From the sequence record MT129654.1: a stretch of DNA of 64,000 bases; one strand, given 5' to 3'. This document shows, piece by piece, positions 8,821 to 52,484 of this stretch. Below the pieces are notes generated by a model, which did not search any database, was not told the DNA's origin, and saw only the letters and a program-made list of their open reading frames with translations. The translations under genes and the position numbers were made by a program. The DNA is from Escherichia phage MN04. Position 1 is the first letter of the stretch. Each line of letters starts with the position of its first letter.

Positions 8821-8964
8821 ATGGAATTACTTTTAGGATATGTCGTGTTATTCATGGCATTCTACACATTCACACGAGCCTGTTGGATAGGATTCTTTTC
8901 TACTCCTGATGGGTTCATCTCAATAATTTTATTTTGCATTGCGATAACGGTGCTCGGCTTATGA
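8821..8964 (+). CDS. small hydrophobic protein (47 aa)
   Basis: CTGAGGAGAACAT-ATG TIR; predicted TM peptide; stop overlaps the gene 47 start (ATGA). Confidence 0.35.
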   Translation: MELLLGYVVLFMAFYTFTRACWIGFFSTPDGFISIILFCIAITVLGL

Positions 8965-18325: not shown

Positions 18326-18562
18326 ATGGAAGCTTTAATCGTTAGTGCTGGTGTTTTAGGATTTGGTTCTCTGGTTATTATGTTCATTGGTTACTTTTTA
18401 CCATGGATTCTGGCTCTTCTGCGAGGCACTCGTAGCAATGTTGGAATCTTCTTCCTTAATCTCCTGTTAGGATGGACTATGATTGGTTGGGTAGTGGCTT
18501 TAATCTGGGCTATCGTCGCTGAACGTAAATCAAACGCACAAATCATTATCGTTAAACAATGA
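18326..18562 (+). CDS. small two-TM membrane protein; Imm-like by position
   Basis: 78 aa with two hydrophobic helices, directly downstream of 43 where T4 has imm; no sequence-level confirmation. Confidence 0.4.
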   Translation: MEALIVSAGVLGFGSLVIMFIGYFLPWILALLRGTRSNVGIFFLNLLLGWTMIGWVVALIWAIVAERKSNAQIIIVKQ

Positions 18563-18703
18563 AGATAATTATTTTATTTCTTATAATGGCTGCCTTTACC
18601 ATTTATTGGGCAGTGGCAATTCCTCCAATGATTCCAACATTAATCATGGGATGGATTATTCTTATAGCACAAATTAAGTATAACTGTTTTAATTGAGGAT
18701 ATT

Positions 18704-22549: not shown

Positions 22550-23439
22550 GTTTGTTTATCGTTCCTATTTTCAGTATGCGTAGTTACGAAACAGGTGAAT
22601 ATGCCGTCCTTAAGGACGGCAATTTTCAACTCCATTTAAATCGTGCTCGTCCAGGTGATTATCTGGCTTATCCTAGAAATTCGAGCGATATCAAAGAATG
22701 CATTGAATTATTCCCAGATCTGAATTTCGTACCACTTTGGTATAAAGAAAATGCTTATGAAACCCGTAAACATTTCTGGTCTGAAAATGAGTTTGTAGTC
22801 GATTCACTAATCGAATACTACGATTGCTCAGGACTGGTAACCGATATCACTGGTTACGATGGTGCTCATACTGTACAATTCAACTTTAATATCACAATGG
22901 ACCCTGAAGTTCCTCGTTATTATATCGACGAGTTCATTGATATTGATGTGGCTTCAGTTGAACGTTCACTTTATACTACAGTCCTGAATCAATGCCAGAA
23001 AGACGTCTTGGTGTCACGAGGTGCATCCTCTGATAAGATTTTTGTAGACCAAAAGGTAATTAATCCTGCAGTAATTGAGCGTTACTCTGAAGGTCTAGCG
23101 CCTATTAAAATTGATGGTATTTTCCATCCATTCCGTATTTCAGATAAGTGTTATCAATTCGAAAGAGTTGTAGACCAAGCTGCCGCTGAAGGTGCTCGTC
23201 TTTATATCACCGATCCGAATGATTCATTTAAGCGCGAAGACTATCGTCCTGATGTAGAGATTATTAAATTCAAACCAAGTAAGGTTGAATATTATCAAAT
23301 TCTGAAATCAAGACCACATATCATTTATCATGAGAACCCAGGTTTAGTATTCCATCCTGGTCTGGCTGAATTCATTTATTTCGGTGCCAATATTCATTCT
23401 GAATACGAAATGCCACGTTATGAGGACGTAGTATGCTAG
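22546..23439 (+). CDS. hypothetical protein; candidate DNA glycosyl/modification transferase (occupies the T4 beta-gt position)
   Basis: 297-aa ORF between the gp42-like gene and uvsX; functional call is by synteny only, no recognised motif. Confidence 0.35.
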   Translation: MSLFIVPIFSMRSYETGEYAVLKDGNFQLHLNRARPGDYLAYPRNSSDIKECIELFPDLNFVPLWYKENAYETRKHFWSENEFVVDSLIEYYDCSGLVTDITGYDGAHTVQFNFNITMDPEVPRYYIDEFIDIDVASVERSLYTTVLNQCQKDVLVSRGASSDKIFVDQKVINPAVIERYSEGLAPIKIDGIFHPFRISDKCYQFERVVDQAAAEGARLYITDPNDSFKREDYRPDVEIIKFKPSKVEYYQILKSRPHIIYHENPGLVFHPGLAEFIYFGANIHSEYEMPRYEDVVC

Positions 23440-23642
23440 GTCCTCTATTGCTTTTTATAGGTTTGTTATTATTCTCTTTCGGAGCCTTGCTATTACTAGT
23501 GTGGCTCGAGAAACGAGAAGTTCGGAAGATAGTCGATAAGGCTATCAACCGAGGAATTAAGTAATGCTGTAGCTGTGAAGTGATATAATTACCCTATCTT
23601 AAAACGTGAGAAAAAATATAATGATGCCTATGGAAAAATATA

Positions 23643-39408: not shown

Positions 39409-39569
39409 AGTTTAAAAAACAGTATACAATACGGTAGGGTAGTGATAAGATTACCCTATCAAAACAAATGAGTGAAATGGAGAATAAAAATGTTTGCACC
39501 TTATATTATGATTACAGTTATCGTTATCTGTCTGTATCTTTTAATTAAAGCTTGTTAAGGAGATTTAAA

Positions 39570-47178: not shown

Positions 47179-47655
47179 ATGAAGGTCAAGATTAAGGATA
47201 CCGTATTGTATTCCTTAAGCCAGGACCCATCCCAAGATAAGAAAGAAGTATTGACTCGGTGTGTTATTGCAACGTATGCAGAGTACATGGTGGCTGATTG
47301 GTTGAAAGGATATGTCAACAGTGGTCTGGAAGACCATGACGACCCTTATACCTACGCCTGGGACGTTTTAGCCCATCCTATGTACTGTGGACTACGTGTA
47401 GAGGTCAAGACCCACCAATCTGATTCTAAGTGGATTTCCTGCACTACAGGATACTCAGGTGACTTCCCTTATGGAACAGGGATAAACCTAGGACCGCTCT
47501 TGAATCATAAAGTTGCAGACTGTATAATTATATTCGACACTTCAGTAAATGAGGCAGGCGACGTCCTGTTCACTCCTAAGTTCTCTGGTGACAGAGAATC
47601 CATCAAAAAGCTAGTCCGTAAGAGTAATTACAACGGCTGGTATCTCGCCTTATAA
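47179..47655 (+). CDS. hypothetical protein (158 aa); sits where T4 has denB, not verified
   Basis: Start chosen at ATG 47179 to avoid overlap; the track's 47035 start overlaps the upstream ORF. Confidence 0.35.
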   Translation: MKVKIKDTVLYSLSQDPSQDKKEVLTRCVIATYAEYMVADWLKGYVNSGLEDHDDPYTYAWDVLAHPMYCGLRVEVKTHQSDSKWISCTTGYSGDFPYGTGINLGPLLNHKVADCIIIFDTSVNEAGDVLFTPKFSGDRESIKKLVRKSNYNGWYLAL

Positions 47656-47669
47656 TTTTAAAAATAAGT

Positions 47670-47699
47670 GTTTACATACACCATGGATGGTGTTACTAT
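47670..47699 (+). promoter_or_regulatory. early promoter, PeSL-like
   Basis: GTTTAC, 18 nt, TACTAT, then CTATCAACTACATGAGAGG. Confidence 0.55.
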
Positions 47700-47730
47700 C
47701 TTCCTATCAACTACATGAGAGGAAAACAAA

Positions 47731-47991
47731 ATGGATATCAAATTATATTACGCTAAACACAAAGTTACGGGTAAAGTTGTTGCCGCAATGTACGATGCAT
47801 CAGGTGAAGATGTTATTACGGAATTATCCCTTTCTAATTGTAGATTTCTTCGTCCTTTGATAGCGTCAAAAAAAGATTTACAAAAACTTATCGACGGTAA
47901 ATTAGATAATGTCGATGATATAGATATCCATTATGAACTCCGCCATGCACTGAATGATGGGTTTATGGAAATAAAAGAGCTAGTATTATGA
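47731..47991 (+). CDS. hypothetical protein (86 aa)
   Basis: GAGAGGAAAA SD behind a PeSL-like promoter. Confidence 0.45.
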   Translation: MDIKLYYAKHKVTGKVVAAMYDASGEDVITELSLSNCRFLRPLIASKKDLQKLIDGKLDNVDDIDIHYELRHALNDGFMEIKELVL

Positions 47992-48081
47992 GTAGCAAAA
48001 TGTGGTGCCTTATTTGGATAGCCTGTATCCCAGTGATTTGCGTATGTTTTAGTTTATTGTTGTGGAAATTGGCATAAATCA

Positions 48082-48110
48082 GTATACATCTCCATTAGAC
48101 ATGATATTAT
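48082..48110 (+). promoter_or_regulatory. early promoter, PeSL-like (variant -35 GTATAC)
   Basis: GTATAC, 17 nt, TATTAT, then AGACCTATCAACT. Confidence 0.45.
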
Positions 48111-48420
48111 AGACCTATCAACTAATGGAGATGATTATGAAAAACTTACTTAAAGCAATTTGGAACATGTTTGTGTTATTGGTTGTATTGAGCATTTTCC
48201 CAATAGTTTTTATGATTGACCATGTACGTGTATTCTTTAACTTCTGAGGAAAATATTATGGGTAATCGAATTTATAAAGTAAAGTTGCATGGTAAAGTGA
48301 TTACTACCGTTAGTTTTAATTTTTATATCAGCGCTGACTGCGCCCGCGATATCCTCATCGAGGAAGGATATAGCGAATACATCCAAATTGAAGAAGTTCT
48401 TTAATTCTGAGGAAAATATT

Positions 48421-48645
48421 ATGAAACTTTTTAAAGATATCGCAGTTGGTGAAAAATTTGTCTTAGGTAATGGTCAACAATTGATTCGCATTTCTCCTTT
48501 AATGGATAATAGTGAGCGGCCCATTCGTACTGAAAACTGTTTGGATTATCCTTTTTATCAAAAGCGTTTTGCTATTGAAAATAATACCGAGTGTTTCACG
48601 GTTGATGAACTGATGGAATTATCAGAAGAAGTCGACTCTGAATAA
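48421..48645 (+). CDS. hypothetical protein (74 aa)
   Basis: CTGAGGAAAATATT-ATG TIR. Confidence 0.4.
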   Translation: MKLFKDIAVGEKFVLGNGQQLIRISPLMDNSERPIRTENCLDYPFYQKRFAIENNTECFTVDELMELSEEVDSE

Positions 48646-48659
48646 TTGAGGAAAATATT

Positions 48660-49004
48660 ATGTCTAAAGTATTTTTTGGTAATTCTAAAGTTATGTTCTT
48701 TGAGCAACTCAGTCTTAAAGAGGCATTGGCAGCCTTCAATCAAGAACTGGTTACTGGGTTAGATTCAAAAACTATGGCAAGTGCGGATTTCGTTTTCGTT
48801 CAAGACCCGGATACAGGGTTTTATCGATTCATCAAATTCCGTATGAGCATGGACCCTGACTATCGTAGTGCTTACTATGTGAGTTACGAAAATGTTATCG
48901 AAGAATTACGTGATACCTATGGACGTGCTTTGAACCCACTGAATAAGGTTTATAATGCGTCCTTTTATACGAGCGGATTTATTTTAGAACAGCTACAAAA
49001 ATAG
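48660..49004 (+). CDS. hypothetical protein (114 aa)
   Basis: TTGAGGAAAATATT-ATG TIR. Confidence 0.45.
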   Translation: MSKVFFGNSKVMFFEQLSLKEALAAFNQELVTGLDSKTMASADFVFVQDPDTGFYRFIKFRMSMDPDYRSAYYVSYENVIEELRDTYGRALNPLNKVYNASFYTSGFILEQLQK

Positions 49005-49032
49005 TTTACAACCTCGAGAATCATGTTATAAT
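49004..49032 (+). promoter_or_regulatory. early promoter, PeSL-like
   Basis: GTTTAC, 17 nt, TATAAT; flanking near-palindrome GAGAATCAT/ATGGTTCTC. Confidence 0.55.
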
Positions 49033-49081
49033 GGTTCTCGTTGACTGGATAACAAAACATTAATCTACTGAGGAAATTGAT

Positions 49082-49531
49082 ATGAATACTTATATGACTC
49101 GCGGTAACGTTCTGTCTGCTGGTGCTACTACTGTTGCTTATGTTAAGAATGGCGAATACCAAAATGGTAAGCCTTCTAAAGAAATCTCAGCCCAGCCAGG
49201 CTTCTACTTCTTTGTTAAAGGTGAAGCAGATTCTCGTGTCGTAGCCGCTCGCTTTTATGTCGGCAACCAACGTTCAGCTCAAGGTCTTGATGGTATTGTG
49301 GCTAACATTCGTAAGAAACGTTCGCAATCAGCTCGTACTATGGCTGTGAATGGTGTAGTGTATGAAGTTCTTTATGTACCTGCTTCTAAAATGAAACCAC
49401 TGACTACAGGTTTTGGTAAGGGTCAAATTGCAATGGCTTTCACTCGCAACCATAGTTCCGACCTTCAGACCCTGGAAGAAATGAACCGCATGTTGGCTGA
49501 TAACTTTAAATTCGTTCTGCAGGCTTACTAA
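49082..49531 (+). CDS. ndd: nucleoid disruption protein Ndd
   Basis: 149 aa; RFYVGNQRS...[17 protein letters not shown]...TRNH...[19 protein letters not shown] matches recalled T4 Ndd. Confidence 0.85.
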
Positions 49532-49608
49532 TGAGCAATTTCCATAACGAACATGTGATGCAGTTCTATCGTAACAATCTTAAAACTAAAGGCGTCTTCG
49601 GACGCTAA
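49531..49608 (+). CDS. stp: Stp peptide (anticodon-nuclease activator / restriction inhibitor)
   Basis: 25 codons, [25 protein letters not shown], essentially identical to the recalled 26-residue T4 Stp; start overlaps the ndd stop. Confidence 0.8.
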
Positions 49609-49618
49609 TGAGGAAAAT

Positions 49619-49780
49619 ATGATTATCCTAGTTTTTATTGAACTTATTATGGCTATGGTTTGTTCAGTTTGCTTCTTTTTAGGTGTATGGACCCCTGGTC
49701 CGGTATTCTTAAGTTTTCTGTTTATTGGCTGGGTTCTTTCTACTTTTGTCGGTTTACTTAAGACGATTAAAAATGATTAA
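49619..49780 (+). CDS. small membrane peptide (53 aa); Ac-like by size and position
   Basis: AGGAAAAT-ATG; hydrophobic core; sits between stp and 52 where T4 has ac. Confidence 0.35.
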   Translation: MIILVFIELIMAMVCSVCFFLGVWTPGPVFLSFLFIGWVLSTFVGLLKTIKND

Positions 49781-49917
49781 GAAAATCTTGGGCTACTCGG
49801 TAGCCCTTGCTGCTTTATTGGTAGCACTGTATTATGGAGTAATATTCGGTCTTATCCAAGTTGTGCTTTTTATTTCCGATGTTATTATGGTTATTCATTC
49901 ACTAGTATGGTAAAATT

Positions 49918-51297
49918 ATGGCTGATGTAATTGATACCCTTTTTAAACAATCCTTAGATGTTTACGATGATGCTTTTACTCGTCGTGACTTAAAAAGCAT
50001 TATCGACAATGAAGCGCTGGCTTATGCAATGTATACTGTCGAAAACCGCGCCATTCCAAATATGATTGATGGCTTTAAACCTGTACAACGTTTTGTAGTT
50101 GCTCGTTGTCTTGATATGGCTCGTGGTAATAAAGAAAAATTCCACAAACTAGCTTCTATTGCAGGTGGTGTAGCCGACCTTGGATATCACCACGGTGAAG
50201 GTTCTGCTCAAGAAGCAGGTGCTCTGATGGCTAACACATGGAACAACAACTTCCCACTGTTGGATGGCCAAGGCAACTTTGGTTCTCGATTAGTTCAAAA
50301 GGCTGCAGCCTCTCGTTATATTTTTGCACGAATTGGAACTAATTTCGCAAAGGTTTATAAGGATACAGAATATGCTCCGGTTCATGCGGATGTCGAACAT
50401 AAGCCACCAGCTTTTTATCTGCCTATTATTCCTACTGTTCTTCTTAATGGTATTTCCGGTATTGCGACTGGTTATGCAACTAATATTCTTCCTCATAGTT
50501 TTGATTCTGTTAAGAAAGCTGTATTGCAGGTTCTTCAAGAAAAACGCGTAACCAAGCCTAAGGTGGCTTATCCGGAATTCCGTGGCGATGTGGTTGAGAT
50601 TGAACCAGGTAGTTATGAACTACGAGGCACGTATAAGTTCACATCTCGAACCCAAATGCATATCACAGAAATCCCGTACAAATACGACCGTGAAACGTAC
50701 GTGGCCAAGGTACTGGACCCTTTAGAAGACAAAGGGTATATCACGTATGATGACGACTGTGACGAGAATGGTTTCGGCTTCAAGGTTAAGATTCGTAAAG
50801 AATATGAATTGCCTACTGAAGAAAATAAGAAGCATGAAAAAATCATGAAGGACTTCGGGTTAATCGAACGTCGTTCGCAAAACCTGACCGTCATTAATGA
50901 GAAAGGTAAACTTAAGGTTTACGAAGATGTAGTTGAACTGATTCGTGATTTCGTTGAGGTCCGTAAGACCTTTGTACAAAAACGTATTGATGGTAAAATC
51001 ATCGAAACCGAAGAAGCTTTCAAACTGGCATTGGCTAAAGCTACATTCATTAAAGATGTTATTGATGGTGTGGTGGTTATCCAAGGTAAGACCCGTAAAG
51101 TTTTAACCGAAGAATTGGCCAGCAATAAAGTCTACGGTGAATACGCTGATAAACTCGTAGCAATGAATATTTTCCATATCACGTCCGATGAAGCTAAGAA
51201 ACTGGCTTTGGAAGCCAAGGCTAAGAAAGAAGAGCACCAATACTGGAAAACCACTGATGTTGTAACTGAGTATGTTAAAGATTTGGAGGCTCTATGA
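49918..51297 (+). CDS. 52: DNA topoisomerase II medium subunit gp52 (GyrA-like)
   Basis: 459 aa; ENRAIPNMIDGFKPVQRF (GyrA-type segment). Confidence 0.9.
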   Translation: MADVIDTLFKQSLDVYDDAFTRRDLKSIIDNEALAYAMYTVENRAIPNMIDGFKPVQRFVVARCLDMARGNKEKFHKLASIAGGVADLGYHHGEGSAQEAGALMANTWNNNFPLLDGQGNFGSRLVQKAAASRYIFARIGTNFAKVYKDTEYAPVHADVEHKPPAFYLPIIPTVLLNGISGIATGYATNILPHSFDSVKKAVLQVLQEKRVTKPKVAYPEFRGDVVEIEPGSYELRGTYKFTSRTQMHITEIPYKYDRETYVAKVLDPLEDKGYITYDDDCDENGFGFKVKIRKEYELPTEENKKHEKIMKDFGLIERRSQNLTVINEKGKLKVYEDVVELIRDFVEVRKTFVQKRIDGKIIETEEAFKLALAKATFIKDVIDGVVVIQGKTRKVLTEELASNKVYGEYADKLVAMNIFHITSDEAKKLALEAKAKKEEHQYWKTTDVVTEYVKDLEAL

Positions 51298-51398
51298 GCC
51301 TTGGAGTCGAGTTCTTGTTACTCTGTATCTTTGCTGTTATCCTAGGCCTGGCGACAGGCTTAGCTATAGGTTTAATAGCAGCCCACTTTAAAAAGTAA
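51294..51398 (+). CDS. small hydrophobic peptide (34 aa)
   Basis: ATG overlapping the gene 52 stop; single predicted TM helix; followed by a terminator. Confidence 0.3.
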   Translation: MSLGVEFLLLCIFAVILGLATGLAIGLIAAHFKK

Positions 51399-51420
51399 GG
51401 AACCTTCGGGTTCCTTTTTG
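51398..51420 (+). terminator. intrinsic terminator after gene 52
   Basis: AGGAACCTTCGGGTTCCT hairpin plus T5 (same sequence as at 31065). Confidence 0.65.
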
Positions 51421-51438
51421 GGTTTAGTGCAAAAAAGT

Positions 51439-51467
51439 GTTTACATCTGCTTTAAACATGATACTAT
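51439..51467 (+). promoter_or_regulatory. early promoter, PeSL-like (duplicate copy 1)
   Basis: GTTTAC, 17 nt, TACTAT, then AGACCTATCAAATAAATGAACTGAAAC. Confidence 0.55.
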
Positions 51468-51515
51468 AGACCTATCAAATAAATGAACTGAAACAAACAA
51501 CCCGGAGATACAAAA

Positions 51516-51743
51516 ATGAAATTTAAAATCGAAAACGAAATCGTTAAAGCTAAAAATGCTCTGACTGCTAACAAACTGGTTGTAGATGGTATTGAATATG
51601 ATATCTGTGGAGTTCGTGAAGAAAAACCCGGTGTTCTGACTTTCTTCACAATGATTTTTAAATTTAAAGGTGACACAGAATTCAAACAGTTTGATTTTGC
51701 CCCTGAAGACGAAATCGAAGTTCGTAATCTGAACATTAAGTAA
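51516..51743 (+). CDS. hypothetical protein (75 aa), flanked by duplicated PeSL-like elements
   Basis: ORF with GGAG SD between two near-identical ~60-bp cassettes. Confidence 0.45.
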   Translation: MKFKIENEIVKAKNALTANKLVVDGIEYDICGVREEKPGVLTFFTMIFKFKGDTEFKQFDFAPEDEIEVRNLNIK

Positions 51744-51782
51744 GTACTTTATTAGAGCTCTTGAAAAAGAGCTCAAAATAAA

Positions 51783-51811
51783 GTTTACTTCTGCTTTAAA
51801 CATGATACTAT
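51783..51811 (+). promoter_or_regulatory. early promoter, PeSL-like (duplicate copy 2)
   Basis: Near-identical to the 51439 copy over about 60 bp. Confidence 0.55.
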
Positions 51812-51848
51812 AGACCTATCAAATAAATGAACTGAAACGGAGATTAAA

Positions 51849-52484
51849 ATGTCTAAAATTACTTATATCATCAAAGCTTCTGAAGACGCCCTGAATGAAA
51901 AAACCGCTTCAATCTTAGTACATATCATCAAGCATAACTTCATCACTTCAGGCGAAGTCCGTGAAGCCCTGAGTGAACAATTTAGTGCAGCGGTAGTTAA
52001 CTCTAACATTGGTGTATTGATTAAGAAAGGATTCATCGAAAAATCTGGTGATGGACTGGTGGCTACGGGTGAAGCAATGGACCTAGTTCAAAAAGCTGCT
52101 GACCTGTTCGCTTCTGAAAATGCTCCAGAGATGTTGGAAAAACGTAAAACTCGCAGTTCACGTGGTGTTACTCCTGAAATGGTAGTATTGGCTGGTGAAG
52201 TTAAATCTTTGTTAGAAGACCGAATCGAGATTCGTGAAATCGCTGAAAACCGTAGCAATCTTGAAGTTCGATTCGCTAAACGTACCAACGGTATTCGTCA
52301 AATCGAAGTCCGTCGTGACGGAATGATGCGTATCTTCGGTTATAATATGACCGATAAAGAAAAACAAGTGTTTACTTCCTTGAATCTTGATGTTAAGATT
52401 AAGACTGGTGGTAAGAATACTTATATCGACTTCCAAAACGTATCATCTGAAGTTATCAAAACCGTAACCAACGCAATTATCTGA
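51849..52484 (+). CDS. motA: middle-transcription activator MotA
   Basis: 211 aa; MSKITYIIKAS...NSNIGVLIKKGFIEKSGDGL matches recalled T4 MotA (also 211 aa). Confidence 0.85.
   Translation: MSKITYIIKASEDALNEKTASILVHIIKHNFITSGEVREALSEQFSAAVVNSNIGVLIKKGFIEKSGDGLVATGEAMDLVQKAADLFASENAPEMLEKRKTRSSRGVTPEMVVLAGEVKSLLEDRIEIREIAENRSNLEVRFAKRTNGIRQIEVRRDGMMRIFGYNMTDKEKQVFTSLNLDVKIKTGGKNTYIDFQNVSSEVIKTVTNAII

Follow-up and report, generated by a model that had tools for sequence, protein, structure and literature searches.

Conserved early micro-ORFs flanking ndd and gene 52 of a JS10-type T4-like coliphage encode predicted small membrane peptides

The best-described relatives of the small early genes considered here are those of phage T4. 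The T4 deletion sa-delta-9, which removes 52.1, ac, stp, ndd, ndd.1-6 and denB, is viable with a yield of about 50% and abolishes phospholipid-synthesis stimulation (PMC6071114), and a deletion extending from gp52.1 to rIIB is viable as well (PMC9712115). [quoted passage not shown] T4 Ac makes cells sensitive to acriflavine and has been proposed to block AcrAB-TolC (bioRxiv 10.1101/2025.06.30.662393; PMC13250531); the link to AcrAB-TolC is a hypothesis in a preprint. The functional data on the T4 block consist of these lipid-synthesis and acriflavine phenotypes only. Turnover in a cassette-like fashion has been described for ndd.4/.5 (PMC4122927). In a T4 proteome study, motA.1, 52.1, ac and ndd.2 to ndd.6 have transcripts of the 'early' class, and the small products were undetected by LC-MS (Class_P = NA; PMC9697503 Table S2).

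We analysed a stretch of 64,000 nt from Escherichia phage MN04 (hereafter the window), which belongs to a T4-like Dhakavirus, is 98% identical to phage JS10 in the region examined and carries the dispensable early 'D region' genes denB, ndd, stp, gene 52 and motA; it contains no ac gene. A sequence-only reading of the same DNA had singled out five short ORFs in this region as unannotated genes for single-transmembrane (TM) peptides. All five exist on the + strand (Table 1), as do three further hydrophobic ORFs it had named (8821, 23433 and 39490), the one correction being to the first of the cluster, which had been placed at 47991-48080, 3 nt from its actual position, where the ATG lies on the upstream stop codon. 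They are not, however, unannotated: all five match PHROG families (E 1e-16 to 1e-26), every one carries an annotation in one relative or more, and the closest relative, JS10, has annotations for three of the five (hypothetical protein, ndd.4 and 52.1). Sequence comparison shows the five micro-ORFs to be genuine early genes of a T4-like coliphage of the JS10 type, conserved and coding for predicted small membrane peptides, an identity that the sequence-only reading had also proposed and that is borne out by PHROG and Pfam matches, conservation, dN/dS and early promoters. They are previously catalogued small membrane-peptide genes flanking ndd and topoisomerase gene 52 and do not constitute a new class. 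Three are orthologs of the T4 D-region genes ndd.6, ndd.4 and 52.1; the other two, assigned by profile to PHROG 9347 and PHROG 16377, lie in the ac and motA.1 slots.

Table 1. Positions of the micro-ORFs, context genes and signals in the window
Feature	Coordinates	Strand	Basis or context
47-aa gp47.1 homolog, two hydrophobic segments	8821..8964	+	100% identity to JS10 gp47.1
45-aa hydrophobic ORF absent from the list of the sequence-only reading	18559..18696	+	gap scan; PHROG 3610, E 1e-21
43-aa peptide, N-terminal TM and basic C-tail	23433..23564	+	upstream of uvsX
22-aa hydrophobic ORF	39490..39558	+	between motB and cef
T4-type early promoter TTTACA-17-TACTAT	47671..47699	+	upstream of 86-aa ORF and ndd.6 homolog
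29-aa single-TM peptide, T4 Ndd.6 homolog (PHROG 8851)	47988..48077	+	profile and T4 match
Early promoter TATACA-16-TATTAT	48083..48110	+	immediately 5' of ndd.4 homolog; includes 22-nt promoter repeat
36-aa single-TM peptide, T4 Ndd.4 homolog (PHROG 3098)	48137..48247	+	profile and T4 match
Strong early promoter TTTACA-16-TATAAT	49005..49032	+	11/12 consensus matches
stp	49531..49608	+	context gene, 25 aa, not hydrophobic
53-aa two-helix membrane hairpin (PHROG 9347)	49619..49780	+	profile match, AF2
46-aa gp52.1 (Pfam DUF7396, PHROG 3595)	49773..49913	+	Pfam, T4 match
Gene 52, topoisomerase II medium subunit	49918..51297	+	context; micro-ORFs on both sides
34-aa single-TM peptide (PHROG 16377)	51294..51398	+	profile match
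Intrinsic-terminator hairpin	51397..51416	+	begins at 34-aa ORF stop codon

The 29-aa peptide, encoded on the early strand between denB and ndd.4, matches its PHROG family over residues 1-28 of the 28-position profile (E 3.9e-16), is 48% identical to T4 Ndd.6 over 25 aa and is annotated in JS10 as EpJS10_0260. RefSeq and PHROG label the Ndd.6 family 'outer membrane protein', which is a prediction only. The 36-aa peptide covers 36 of 37 profile positions (E 4.1e-21) and is 61% identical to T4 Ndd.4, with homologs in 28 of 43 T4-like loci. An alternative ATG at 48125 would give a 40-aa form, but the 36-aa start, which has a GGAG 6 nt upstream, is favoured because the profile aligns with residues 5-40 of the longer form.

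The 53-aa product matches its profile at 53 of 53 positions (E 8.1e-26), and tblastn recovered the family from 88 phage records at identities from 98% down to about 27%, always at 51-53 aa, in phages of Escherichia, Enterobacter, Edwardsiella, Kosakonia, Serratia and Erwinia; NC-G, dhabil, IME281 and CLB_P2 have the ORF annotated. The peptide has two hydrophobic segments and a G-x-W-x-P turn that is conserved in the family, and AF2, in a single-sequence prediction, folds it into a helix-turn-helix (H2-22, H26-52; pLDDT 85). The searches found no homologs outside phages, and no bacterial ones to hint at a target. We rejected the ORF as an ac homolog: tblastn against the T4 ac region gave no match, hhalign did not list the pair with Ac among its best 25 (probabilities 17.8% down to 1.2%), and the two genes are not orthologs since they coexist in JS98, IME281, NC-G and EcS1.

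Immediately downstream, gp52.1 covers 46 of 46 positions of its Pfam family (78 bits, cut-off 27), is 91% identical to T4 gp52.1 and is present in 33 of 43 loci. The gap between 52.1 and gene 52 is 4 nt here and 1-8 nt in every locus that has 52.1, and the upstream small membrane ORF always overlaps 52.1, by 1-8 nt. On the far side of gene 52, the 34-aa ORF matches its profile at 34 of 34 positions (E 2.3e-21), is carried by 54 Dhakavirus-type records and is annotated in CLB_P2 and others. Five Dhakavirus relatives differ within it by 2-4 nucleotides, all synonymous, and a 32-aa version, which has most of the first 26 residues in common (roughly 60% by eye), occurs in phages whose gp52 is 67% identical; the motif G18xxxG22xxxG26 is conserved. 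A homology with MotA.1 was considered and rejected, as tblastn gave no significant match, BLAST clustering placed the two apart and hhalign gave no signal, the pair not being among the best 25. The single-TM description holds for the 29-, 36- and 34-aa peptides, whereas the 53-aa peptide is a predicted hairpin and gp52.1 is ambiguous in topology, because its roughly 40 hydrophobic residues are modelled by AF2 (single-sequence prediction) as one 44-residue helix.

The early promoters ahead of the micro-ORFs are of the sigma-70, T4 type. That preceding the 86-aa ORF (47731-47991) fits the T4/PST early-promoter consensus TTTACW-N17-TAYWAT (PMC4122927); the 22-nt repeat within the next, CATGATAYTATAGACCTATCAA, occurs in 6 copies in the window versus 0 expected; and the strong promoter precedes ndd, stp (product identical to T4 Stp residues 1-25; PHROG 6763, E 1.6e-20), the 53-aa ORF, 52.1, gene 52 and the 34-aa ORF. 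The terminator hairpin is followed by another early promoter (51440-51467), giving a PeSL-like composite. Good Shine-Dalgarno sequences (SDs), which had been claimed for the whole cluster, are found at 48137 (GGAG), 49619 (GAGGA) and 51294 (GGAGG, 5 nt upstream of an ATGA overlapping the gene 52 stop codon), while the starts at 47988 and 49773 have no SD. Both of these fall within the last nucleotides of the ORF ahead of them (4-nt and 8-nt overlap, respectively), which implies translational coupling; the 4-nt overlap of the 29-aa ORF with the 86-aa ORF recurs in 7 of 10 loci.

Hydrophobic small ORFs elsewhere in the window vary in how well they are conserved. The 47-aa ORF matches PHROG 6693 (E 1e-30), its JS10 counterpart being labelled 'hypothetical predicted membrane protein'. 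The 43-aa ORF is confined to records of the Dhakavirus type (21 of them), is annotated in CLB_P2 and unannotated in JS10, and had no match in a PHROG search. The weakest candidate is the 22-aa ORF, which matched nothing in PHROG, Pfam or NCBIfam, is unannotated in UP19 and absent from the JS10 motB-cef stretch examined; the 501 nt around it are covered to at least 80% in only 3 phage records.

Hydrophobicity alone is weak evidence in the AT-rich DNA of the window. Among ATG-initiated ORFs of 20-65 aa, 8 of the 60 lying in gaps between long + strand ORFs were strongly hydrophobic, against 10 of 311 others, a comparison set made up of overlapping ORFs and the minus strand (Fisher p = 0.003). We regard the micro-ORFs as real because they are conserved rather than because they are hydrophobic. 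The sequence-only reading had allowed that they might not be conserved in relatives; ORF integrity and length are in fact maintained across several Tevenvirinae genera, protein similarity outlasts DNA divergence, and the family alignments contain invariant motifs. The median dN/dS of the five families is 0.10-0.41 (0.28 for the ndd.6 family, 0.32 for ndd.4 and 0.35 for 52.1), pointing to purifying selection; values of 0.3-0.4 are only moderate, and the sets were small and partly redundant.

We consider it probable that the five ORFs are real genes for early, inner-membrane, dispensable and host-specific accessory peptides that modify envelope physiology. The peptides would be produced in the first minutes of infection and would insert into the host inner membrane, as one helix in the case of ndd.6, ndd.4 and the 34-aa peptide and as a helical hairpin in the case of the 53-aa peptide, there to serve as dispensable, host-specific accessory factors. 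Through small-xxx-small (GxxxG) helix interfaces the peptides may bind host membrane proteins or lipids, or pack against them, and such contacts would modify envelope physiology, with T4 Ac as the model; a second pointer to an envelope role is that the T4 block is required for phage-induced stimulation of phospholipid synthesis. By analogy, accessory inner-membrane peptides modulating the host envelope are most likely what these micro-peptides are, and the targeting of host membrane proteins is the most plausible of the putative roles that the sequence-only reading had offered, the others being superinfection exclusion and lysis inhibition.

It is extremely unlikely that the five ORFs are untranslated chance frames in AT-rich intergenic DNA that owe their conservation to regulatory DNA or RNA (promoters, RBSs, terminators). 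Hydrophobic frames do occur among the small ORFs outside the gaps (10 of 311), the 22-aa ORF at 39490 shows poor conservation and lacks annotation wherever this was checked, and the T4 counterparts escaped detection by LC-MS (PMC9697503). Chance frames would not be expected, however, to keep their protein similarity despite DNA divergence, with substitutions biased to synonymous, nor to preserve reading frame and length across genera and place their starts precisely for SD-dependent or coupled initiation, and an Rfam search gave no family match for the cluster. Like the small T4 proteins Imm, Sp and RI, which are early or located in the membrane or periplasm, the cluster peptides are early and membrane-directed, yet a role in superinfection exclusion or lysis inhibition of the Imm/Sp or RI/RIII type is quite improbable. 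Scans of PHROG, Pfam and NCBIfam returned nothing beyond families of unknown function, a single 'outer membrane protein' label and noise below threshold, with no match to any functionally named family and nothing of the Imm, Sp, RI, RIII or holin kind; the cluster ORFs are not adjacent to lysis genes; and the 29-36-aa peptides, unlike RI, are nearly without an extramembrane domain for a periplasmic partner. Nor do the two papers on T4 deletions of the block (PMC9712115, PMC6071114) report a change in exclusion or lysis inhibition.

A further, unlikely reading makes the peptides putative host-lethal membrane perturbers, type I toxin- or pinholin-like, that depolarise or permeabilise the inner membrane early for host shut-off. 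The 34-aa peptide and 52.1 have conserved GxxxG or glycine-zipper motifs, a hallmark of TM helices that oligomerise or form pores. Host-lethal products, moreover, are encoded by many of the small T4 genes of the immediate-early class (PMC6071114). The small-xxx-small motif is nevertheless equally consistent with heteromeric packing. Depolarisation would also run counter to the energised membrane that T4 needs for DNA entry and replication. Decidedly unlikely, too, is a general arrangement in which the gene 52 flanks form a coupled chain of membrane micro-proteins with conserved slots and sequences swapped among unrelated families, with X58, ac, the 53-aa peptide or Y43 in front, followed by 52.1 and gene 52 and, last, a hydrophobic peptide that can be swapped. 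Were this so, the slots would be filled by exchangeable effectors, specific to the host, that act on machines of its inner membrane, and the 53-aa hairpin, for instance, might inhibit another pump or transporter in the manner of Ac; alternatively, the chain peptides would anchor the topoisomerase or replication complex in the membrane. The latter notion, that the peptides bracketing gene 52 (53-aa, 52.1 and 34-aa) are co-translated tethers of the topoisomerase or early replication complex, draws on the ending of 52.1 just ahead of gene 52 (33/33 loci), on a hydrophobic micro-ORF, drawn from at least eight unrelated sequence families, whose start lies on the stop codon of gene 52 in 32 of 43 loci, and on gp39 and gp52, which were reportedly membrane-associated in fractionation studies of the 1970s. 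We hold it to be highly improbable, since close packing and coupling are general for T4 early genes, 52.1 is missing from 10 of 43 loci and the downstream ORF from 11 of 43, and T4 without 52.1 grows (sa-delta-9, PMC6071114; gp52.1-rIIB deletion, PMC9712115). A literature search on topoisomerase membrane tethering by these peptides found no support.

Taken as probable accessory peptides of the inner membrane, the five can be set beside their T4 counterparts. The product of 49773-49913 is the ortholog of T4 gp52.1 with essentially no differences, the YYG-x-x-F/Y-G and LFISDV motifs, the length of 46 aa and the 4-nt spacing to gene 52 all being common to both. T4 Ndd.6 (28 aa) resembles the 29-aa peptide in length class, in position after the denB-proximal ORF and before ndd.4, in the motif W-C-x-x-W...I-P-x-I-C and in its single TM; the 29-aa peptide differs at its C-terminus (WKLA rather than MRLL). 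T4 Ndd.4 and the 36-aa peptide both have a basic N-terminus, one TM, an F-P...I-D motif and their own early promoter; T4 Ndd.4 is 42 aa as annotated whereas the form here is likely 36 aa, and the T4 neighbours ndd.5, ndd.3, ndd.2a and ndd.2 are absent from the window. T4 Ac (51 aa) is like the 53-aa ORF product in size, position and 8-nt overlap with 52.1, and both are two-helix hairpins, by AF2 for the latter and by the published architecture for Ac (bioRxiv 10.1101/2025.06.30.662393), but they have no sequence or profile similarity and belong to different PHROG families. T4 motA.1 and the 34-aa ORF both start on the ATGA ending gene 52, close the row of ORFs ahead of a terminator or of the motA promoter region and encode glycine-rich, hydrophobic products; the 34-aa peptide is shorter than MotA.1 (49 aa, 'predicted periplasmic'), has one TM and no detectable homology to it, and its family is limited to phages of the Dhakavirus type plus a single group farther away. 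Bacterial small membrane regulators of the AcrZ type are single-helix or hairpin peptides of ~30-50 aa that bind larger membrane proteins; without claiming homology, we take their likeness to the micro-peptides as a working analogy.

The region 47500-52000 is 98.1% identical over its full length to Escherichia phage JS10 (Straboviridae, Tevenvirinae, Dhakavirus), matches 665 phage records and corresponds to the T4 rIIB/denB-to-motA region, lying in the direction of early transcription. Its + strand carries, in order, denB, an 86-aa ORF, small ORFs, ndd.1, a 114-aa ORF, ndd, stp, small ORFs, gene 52 (topoisomerase II medium subunit), a small ORF, a 75-aa ORF and motA. The sequence-only reading had picked out five ORFs here as unannotated, strongly hydrophobic, single-transmembrane (TM) peptides with good Shine-Dalgarno (SD) sequences. 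This observation was largely correct, but the ORFs are already catalogued. All five are present, with GRAVY values of 1.5-1.9 and best 19-residue Kyte-Doolittle windows of 2.5-2.8; the coordinates listed for the first run 3 nt high. SD sequences precede the starts at 48137 (GGAG), 49619 (GAGGA) and 51294 (GGAGG), whereas 47988 and 49773 have none; these two starts lie inside the preceding ORF, by 4 nt and 8 nt, respectively. 'Unannotated' holds at most for single records, since JS10 annotates the ndd.6 homolog (as a hypothetical protein), ndd.4 and 52.1, while other relatives annotate the 53-aa ORF (NC-G, dhabil, IME281 and CLB_P2) and the 34-aa ORF (CLB_P2 and several further records). Three of the ORFs are orthologs of named T4 ORFs; the remaining two fall into PHROG families that already exist, and sister genomes annotate them.

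Features of the window discussed in the text
Feature	Position	Strand	Remarks
gp47.1	8821-8964		100% identity to JS10; PHROG 6693
45-aa ORF	18559-18696	+	MKIIILFLIMAAFTIYWAVAIPPMIPTLIMGWIILIAQIKYNCFN; strongly hydrophobic; PHROG 3610, E 1e-21
43-aa ORF	23433-23564		Dhakavirus-type records only (21); annotated only in CLB_P2; no PHROG
22-aa ORF	39490-39558		between motB and cef; poor conservation
T4-type early promoter	47671	+	precedes 86-aa ORF and ndd.6
ndd.6 homolog (29 aa)	47988-48077	+	PHROG 8851, E 4e-16; T4 Ndd.6 match
T4-type early promoter	48083	+	precedes ndd.4
ndd.4 homolog (36 aa)	48137-48247	+	PHROG 3098, E 4e-21; 61% identity to T4 Ndd.4
163-nt cassette	48243-48423	+	ends are exact repeats of RBS region TTCTGAGGAAAATATTATG; in window and JS10, cleanly missing from IME281
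48-aa ORF in cassette	48258-48404	+	non-hydrophobic; no PHROG match
T4-type early promoter	49005	+	precedes ndd through 34-aa ORF
stp	49531-49608	+	equals T4 Stp over 25 residues, without only the final Gln; non-hydrophobic
53-aa ORF	49619-49780	+	PHROG 9347
52.1 (46 aa)	49773-49913	+	Pfam DUF7396, 78 bits (cut-off 27); 91% identity to T4
34-aa ORF	51294-51398	+	PHROG 16377
Terminator hairpin	51397-51416	+	begins at 34-aa ORF stop codon; followed by another early promoter
75-aa ORF	51516-51743	+	unrelated sequence there in NC-G, dhabil and CLB_P2
22-nt early-promoter segment CATGATAYTATAGACCTATCAA	26611, 27569, 34319, 48100, 51457, 51801	+	6 copies, 0 expected

The single-TM description held for the ndd.6, ndd.4 and 34-aa peptides, in which hydropathy gives one TM segment, and failed for the 53-aa peptide, in which it gives two. 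Single-sequence AF2 modelled the latter as helices at residues 2-22 and 26-52 joined by a turn at a conserved G-x-W-x-P (pLDDT 85), and 52.1 as one 44-residue helix (pLDDT 94), which in our judgement would be too long for a simple span. By the positive-inside rule, ndd.4 and 52.1 would lie N-in and the 34-aa peptide N-out/C-in. The ndd.6 homolog and T4 Ndd.6 are MSSKMWCLIWIACIPVICVCFSLLLWKLA and MSSLWWCFVWLISIPVICLTFTFVMRLL, respectively; inspection by eye led us to reject a lipoprotein, no lipobox preceding Cys13, which is Ser in T4. For the ndd.4 homolog, the PHROG 3098 profile favours the 36-aa start.

Three further hydrophobic ORFs had been listed elsewhere in the window, two of which are gp47.1 and the 43-aa ORF; a CbdX-like match of the latter in the NCBIfam/Rfam scan was sub-threshold and taken as noise. 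The 22-aa ORF is doubtful and could not be supported as a gene: only 3 records conserve its surroundings, and UP19, the sole relative checked, does not annotate it. A scan of gaps added the 45-aa ORF, which the sequence-only reading had missed. The non-hydrophobic stp was not listed there either; its T4 product sets off the host anticodon nuclease PrrC.

It is very probable that the five ORFs are genuine early genes encoding small membrane peptides, and we regard chance ORFs as a most improbable alternative. In a crude scan of the whole window, 8 of 60 small ATG ORFs in the gaps between long + strand ORFs were strongly hydrophobic, against 10 of 311 other small ORFs (Fisher p = 0.003). Lack of conservation in relatives had been named as what would count against the ORFs; all five are conserved across relatives. 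By tblastn, the 53-aa peptide occurs in 88 phage records (Escherichia, Enterobacter, Edwardsiella, Kosakonia, Serratia and Erwinia phages) at 98% to about 27% identity and always at 51-53 aa. A search of 5.8 billion proteins returned only 7 clusters for it, each of phage type; neither bacterial relatives nor a Pfam domain turned up. The 34-aa peptide is found in 54 Dhakavirus-type records, and a 32-aa version that keeps G18xxxG22xxxG26 is carried by phages with a gp52 of only 67% identity. Readthrough or extension of gp52 into the 34-aa ORF was rejected, this ORF having another frame and its own SD. We took 48 loci around gp52 from IMG/VR, some of them duplicates of GenBank genomes, and clustered ORFs over 43 loci including the window and T4, of which 33 had 52.1, 28 ndd.4, 18 the 53-aa family, 13 ndd.6, 12 ac, and 9 each the 34-aa family and motA.1. 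Median Nei-Gojobori dN/dS was 0.28 for ndd.6, 0.32 for ndd.4, 0.41 for the 53-aa family, 0.35 for 52.1 and 0.10 for the 34-aa family, ratios that are inflated because only unique protein sequences were used. Across five Dhakaviruses the 34-aa ORF differs at 2-4 nucleotides, every change being synonymous. An NCBIfam scan of the peptides and an Rfam scan of the region gave nothing useful, the latter no matches at all.

The promoter hexamers match the consensus TTTACW-N17-TAYWAT of the terminator-promoter composites ('PeSL' elements) of T4 and PST (PMC4122927). In T4, motA.1, 52.1, ac, stp and ndd.2 to ndd.6 count as early by their transcripts, and LC-MS detected no protein from any of them, gaps of a kind ascribed to small size or low expression, with the 5-kDa Ndd.4 given as an example (PMC9697503). 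In phage PST, other ORFs stand in place of ndd.4/.5, which has been ascribed to PeSL-mediated recombination (PMC4122927). The copies of CATGATAYTATAGACCTATCAA combine with hairpins at 51397-51416 and about 51757-51780 into PeSL-like composites, which flank the 75-aa ORF. The 48243-48423 cassette looks like an indel from recombination between repeated ribosome-binding sites. A 16-mer, TGAGGAAAATATTATG, has 13 copies in the window when as many as 2 mismatches are allowed; the expectation is 0.14.

As to function, only two leads exist for the small hydrophobic ORFs between rIIB and 52, namely the acridine phenotype of ac and the effect of a multi-gene deletion on lipid synthesis. The T4 deletion sa-delta-9 takes out some 3.4 kb with 52.1, ac, stp, ndd, ndd.1-6 and denB; phage yield is then still about 50% of wild type, and the rise in phospholipid and phosphatidylglycerol synthesis that the phage normally induces is lost (PMC6071114); a T4 deletion from gp52.1 to rIIB is viable (PMC9712115). 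T4 ac confers sensitivity to acriflavine and its deletion resistance, and the two-helix Ac peptide is proposed to block AcrAB-TolC (2025 preprint, bioRxiv 10.1101/2025.06.30.662393), a block repeated as an assumption in PMC13250531. The phage has no ac gene (49500-49920 of the window), unlike JS98, IME281 and NC-G. Since ac is absent here and its deletion makes T4 resistant, natural insensitivity to acriflavine is predicted for this phage.

With Ac as the model, the peptides might be dispensable, host-adaptive peptides of the inner membrane whose action is to bind proteins of the host membrane or to disturb lipid and envelope physiology, a mode of action that we propose tentatively; joined to the reading as real early genes, it makes the best explanation overall, and a fairly probable one. 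Three other roles, in falling order of probability, were weighed against it. Host-lethal, membrane-perturbing peptides are unlikely, and a role in superinfection exclusion or lysis inhibition, suggested by the sequence-only reading, is decidedly so; tethers of gp52 or the replication complex are highly unlikely, a literature search on gp52 membrane association having returned nothing usable. The literature search gave no gene-specific data on ndd.4, ndd.6, 52.1, motA.1 or the two Dhakavirus families, and the main texts of the HIDEN-SEQ and CRISPRi-ART phage functional-genomics studies do not mention ndd.x, 52.1 or motA.1; about one third of T4 proteins are labelled uncharacterised or hypothetical (PMC9697503). 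If host membrane machines are the targets, the peptides would be compact natural inhibitors of relevance to antimicrobial design.

In 33 of 33 loci 52.1 ends 1-8 nt before gene 52, and in every case a small membrane ORF of the 53-aa, ac, 43-aa or 57-aa family lies upstream and runs 1-8 nt into it. In 32 of 43 T4-like loci (51294 in the window; L014-L060 among relatives), a scan restricted to ATG starts found a hydrophobic micro-ORF whose start overlaps the gene 52 stop or lies just ahead of it; these ORFs belong to at least 8 BLAST-unrelated families of 23-77 aa. Positions are thus conserved and occupants swapped. NC-G (locus L002, 2370-3182) and IME281 (locus L005, 2369-3046) carry an extra block of divergent stp and ac, inserted after ndd and ahead of the 53-aa gene, with a remnant of the 52.1 N-terminus behind it. 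In NC-G a 57-aa two-TM ORF stands before the block, and the 52.1 remnant continues in frame into a second copy of stp. The arrangement looks like a recombinant join of 'stp-ac-52.1' and 'stp-53aa-52.1' modules.

The 53-aa peptide and Ac, like the 34-aa peptide and MotA.1, gave no tblastn match and fell in separate BLAST clusters. Among 16 small-peptide families from the 43 loci, every hhalign pair stayed below 18% probability (best 17.8%), and neither 53-aa/Ac nor 34-aa/MotA.1 was among the pairs listed; with hhalign giving no signal, we do not claim homology for either. Moreover, JS98, IME281, NC-G and EcS1 have both ac and the 53-aa gene, so the latter is not an ortholog of ac. Nothing in the window goes beyond the T4, JS98 and JS10 annotations and PHROGs, and the modest added value is comparative. 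In T4, ac (51 aa) and 52.1 share an 8-nt overlap, and motA.1 (49 aa) begins on the ATGA that ends gene 52; in the window the 53-aa and 34-aa ORFs take exactly these positions, and the two families thus share the T4 slots yet are not orthologs of Ac and MotA.1.
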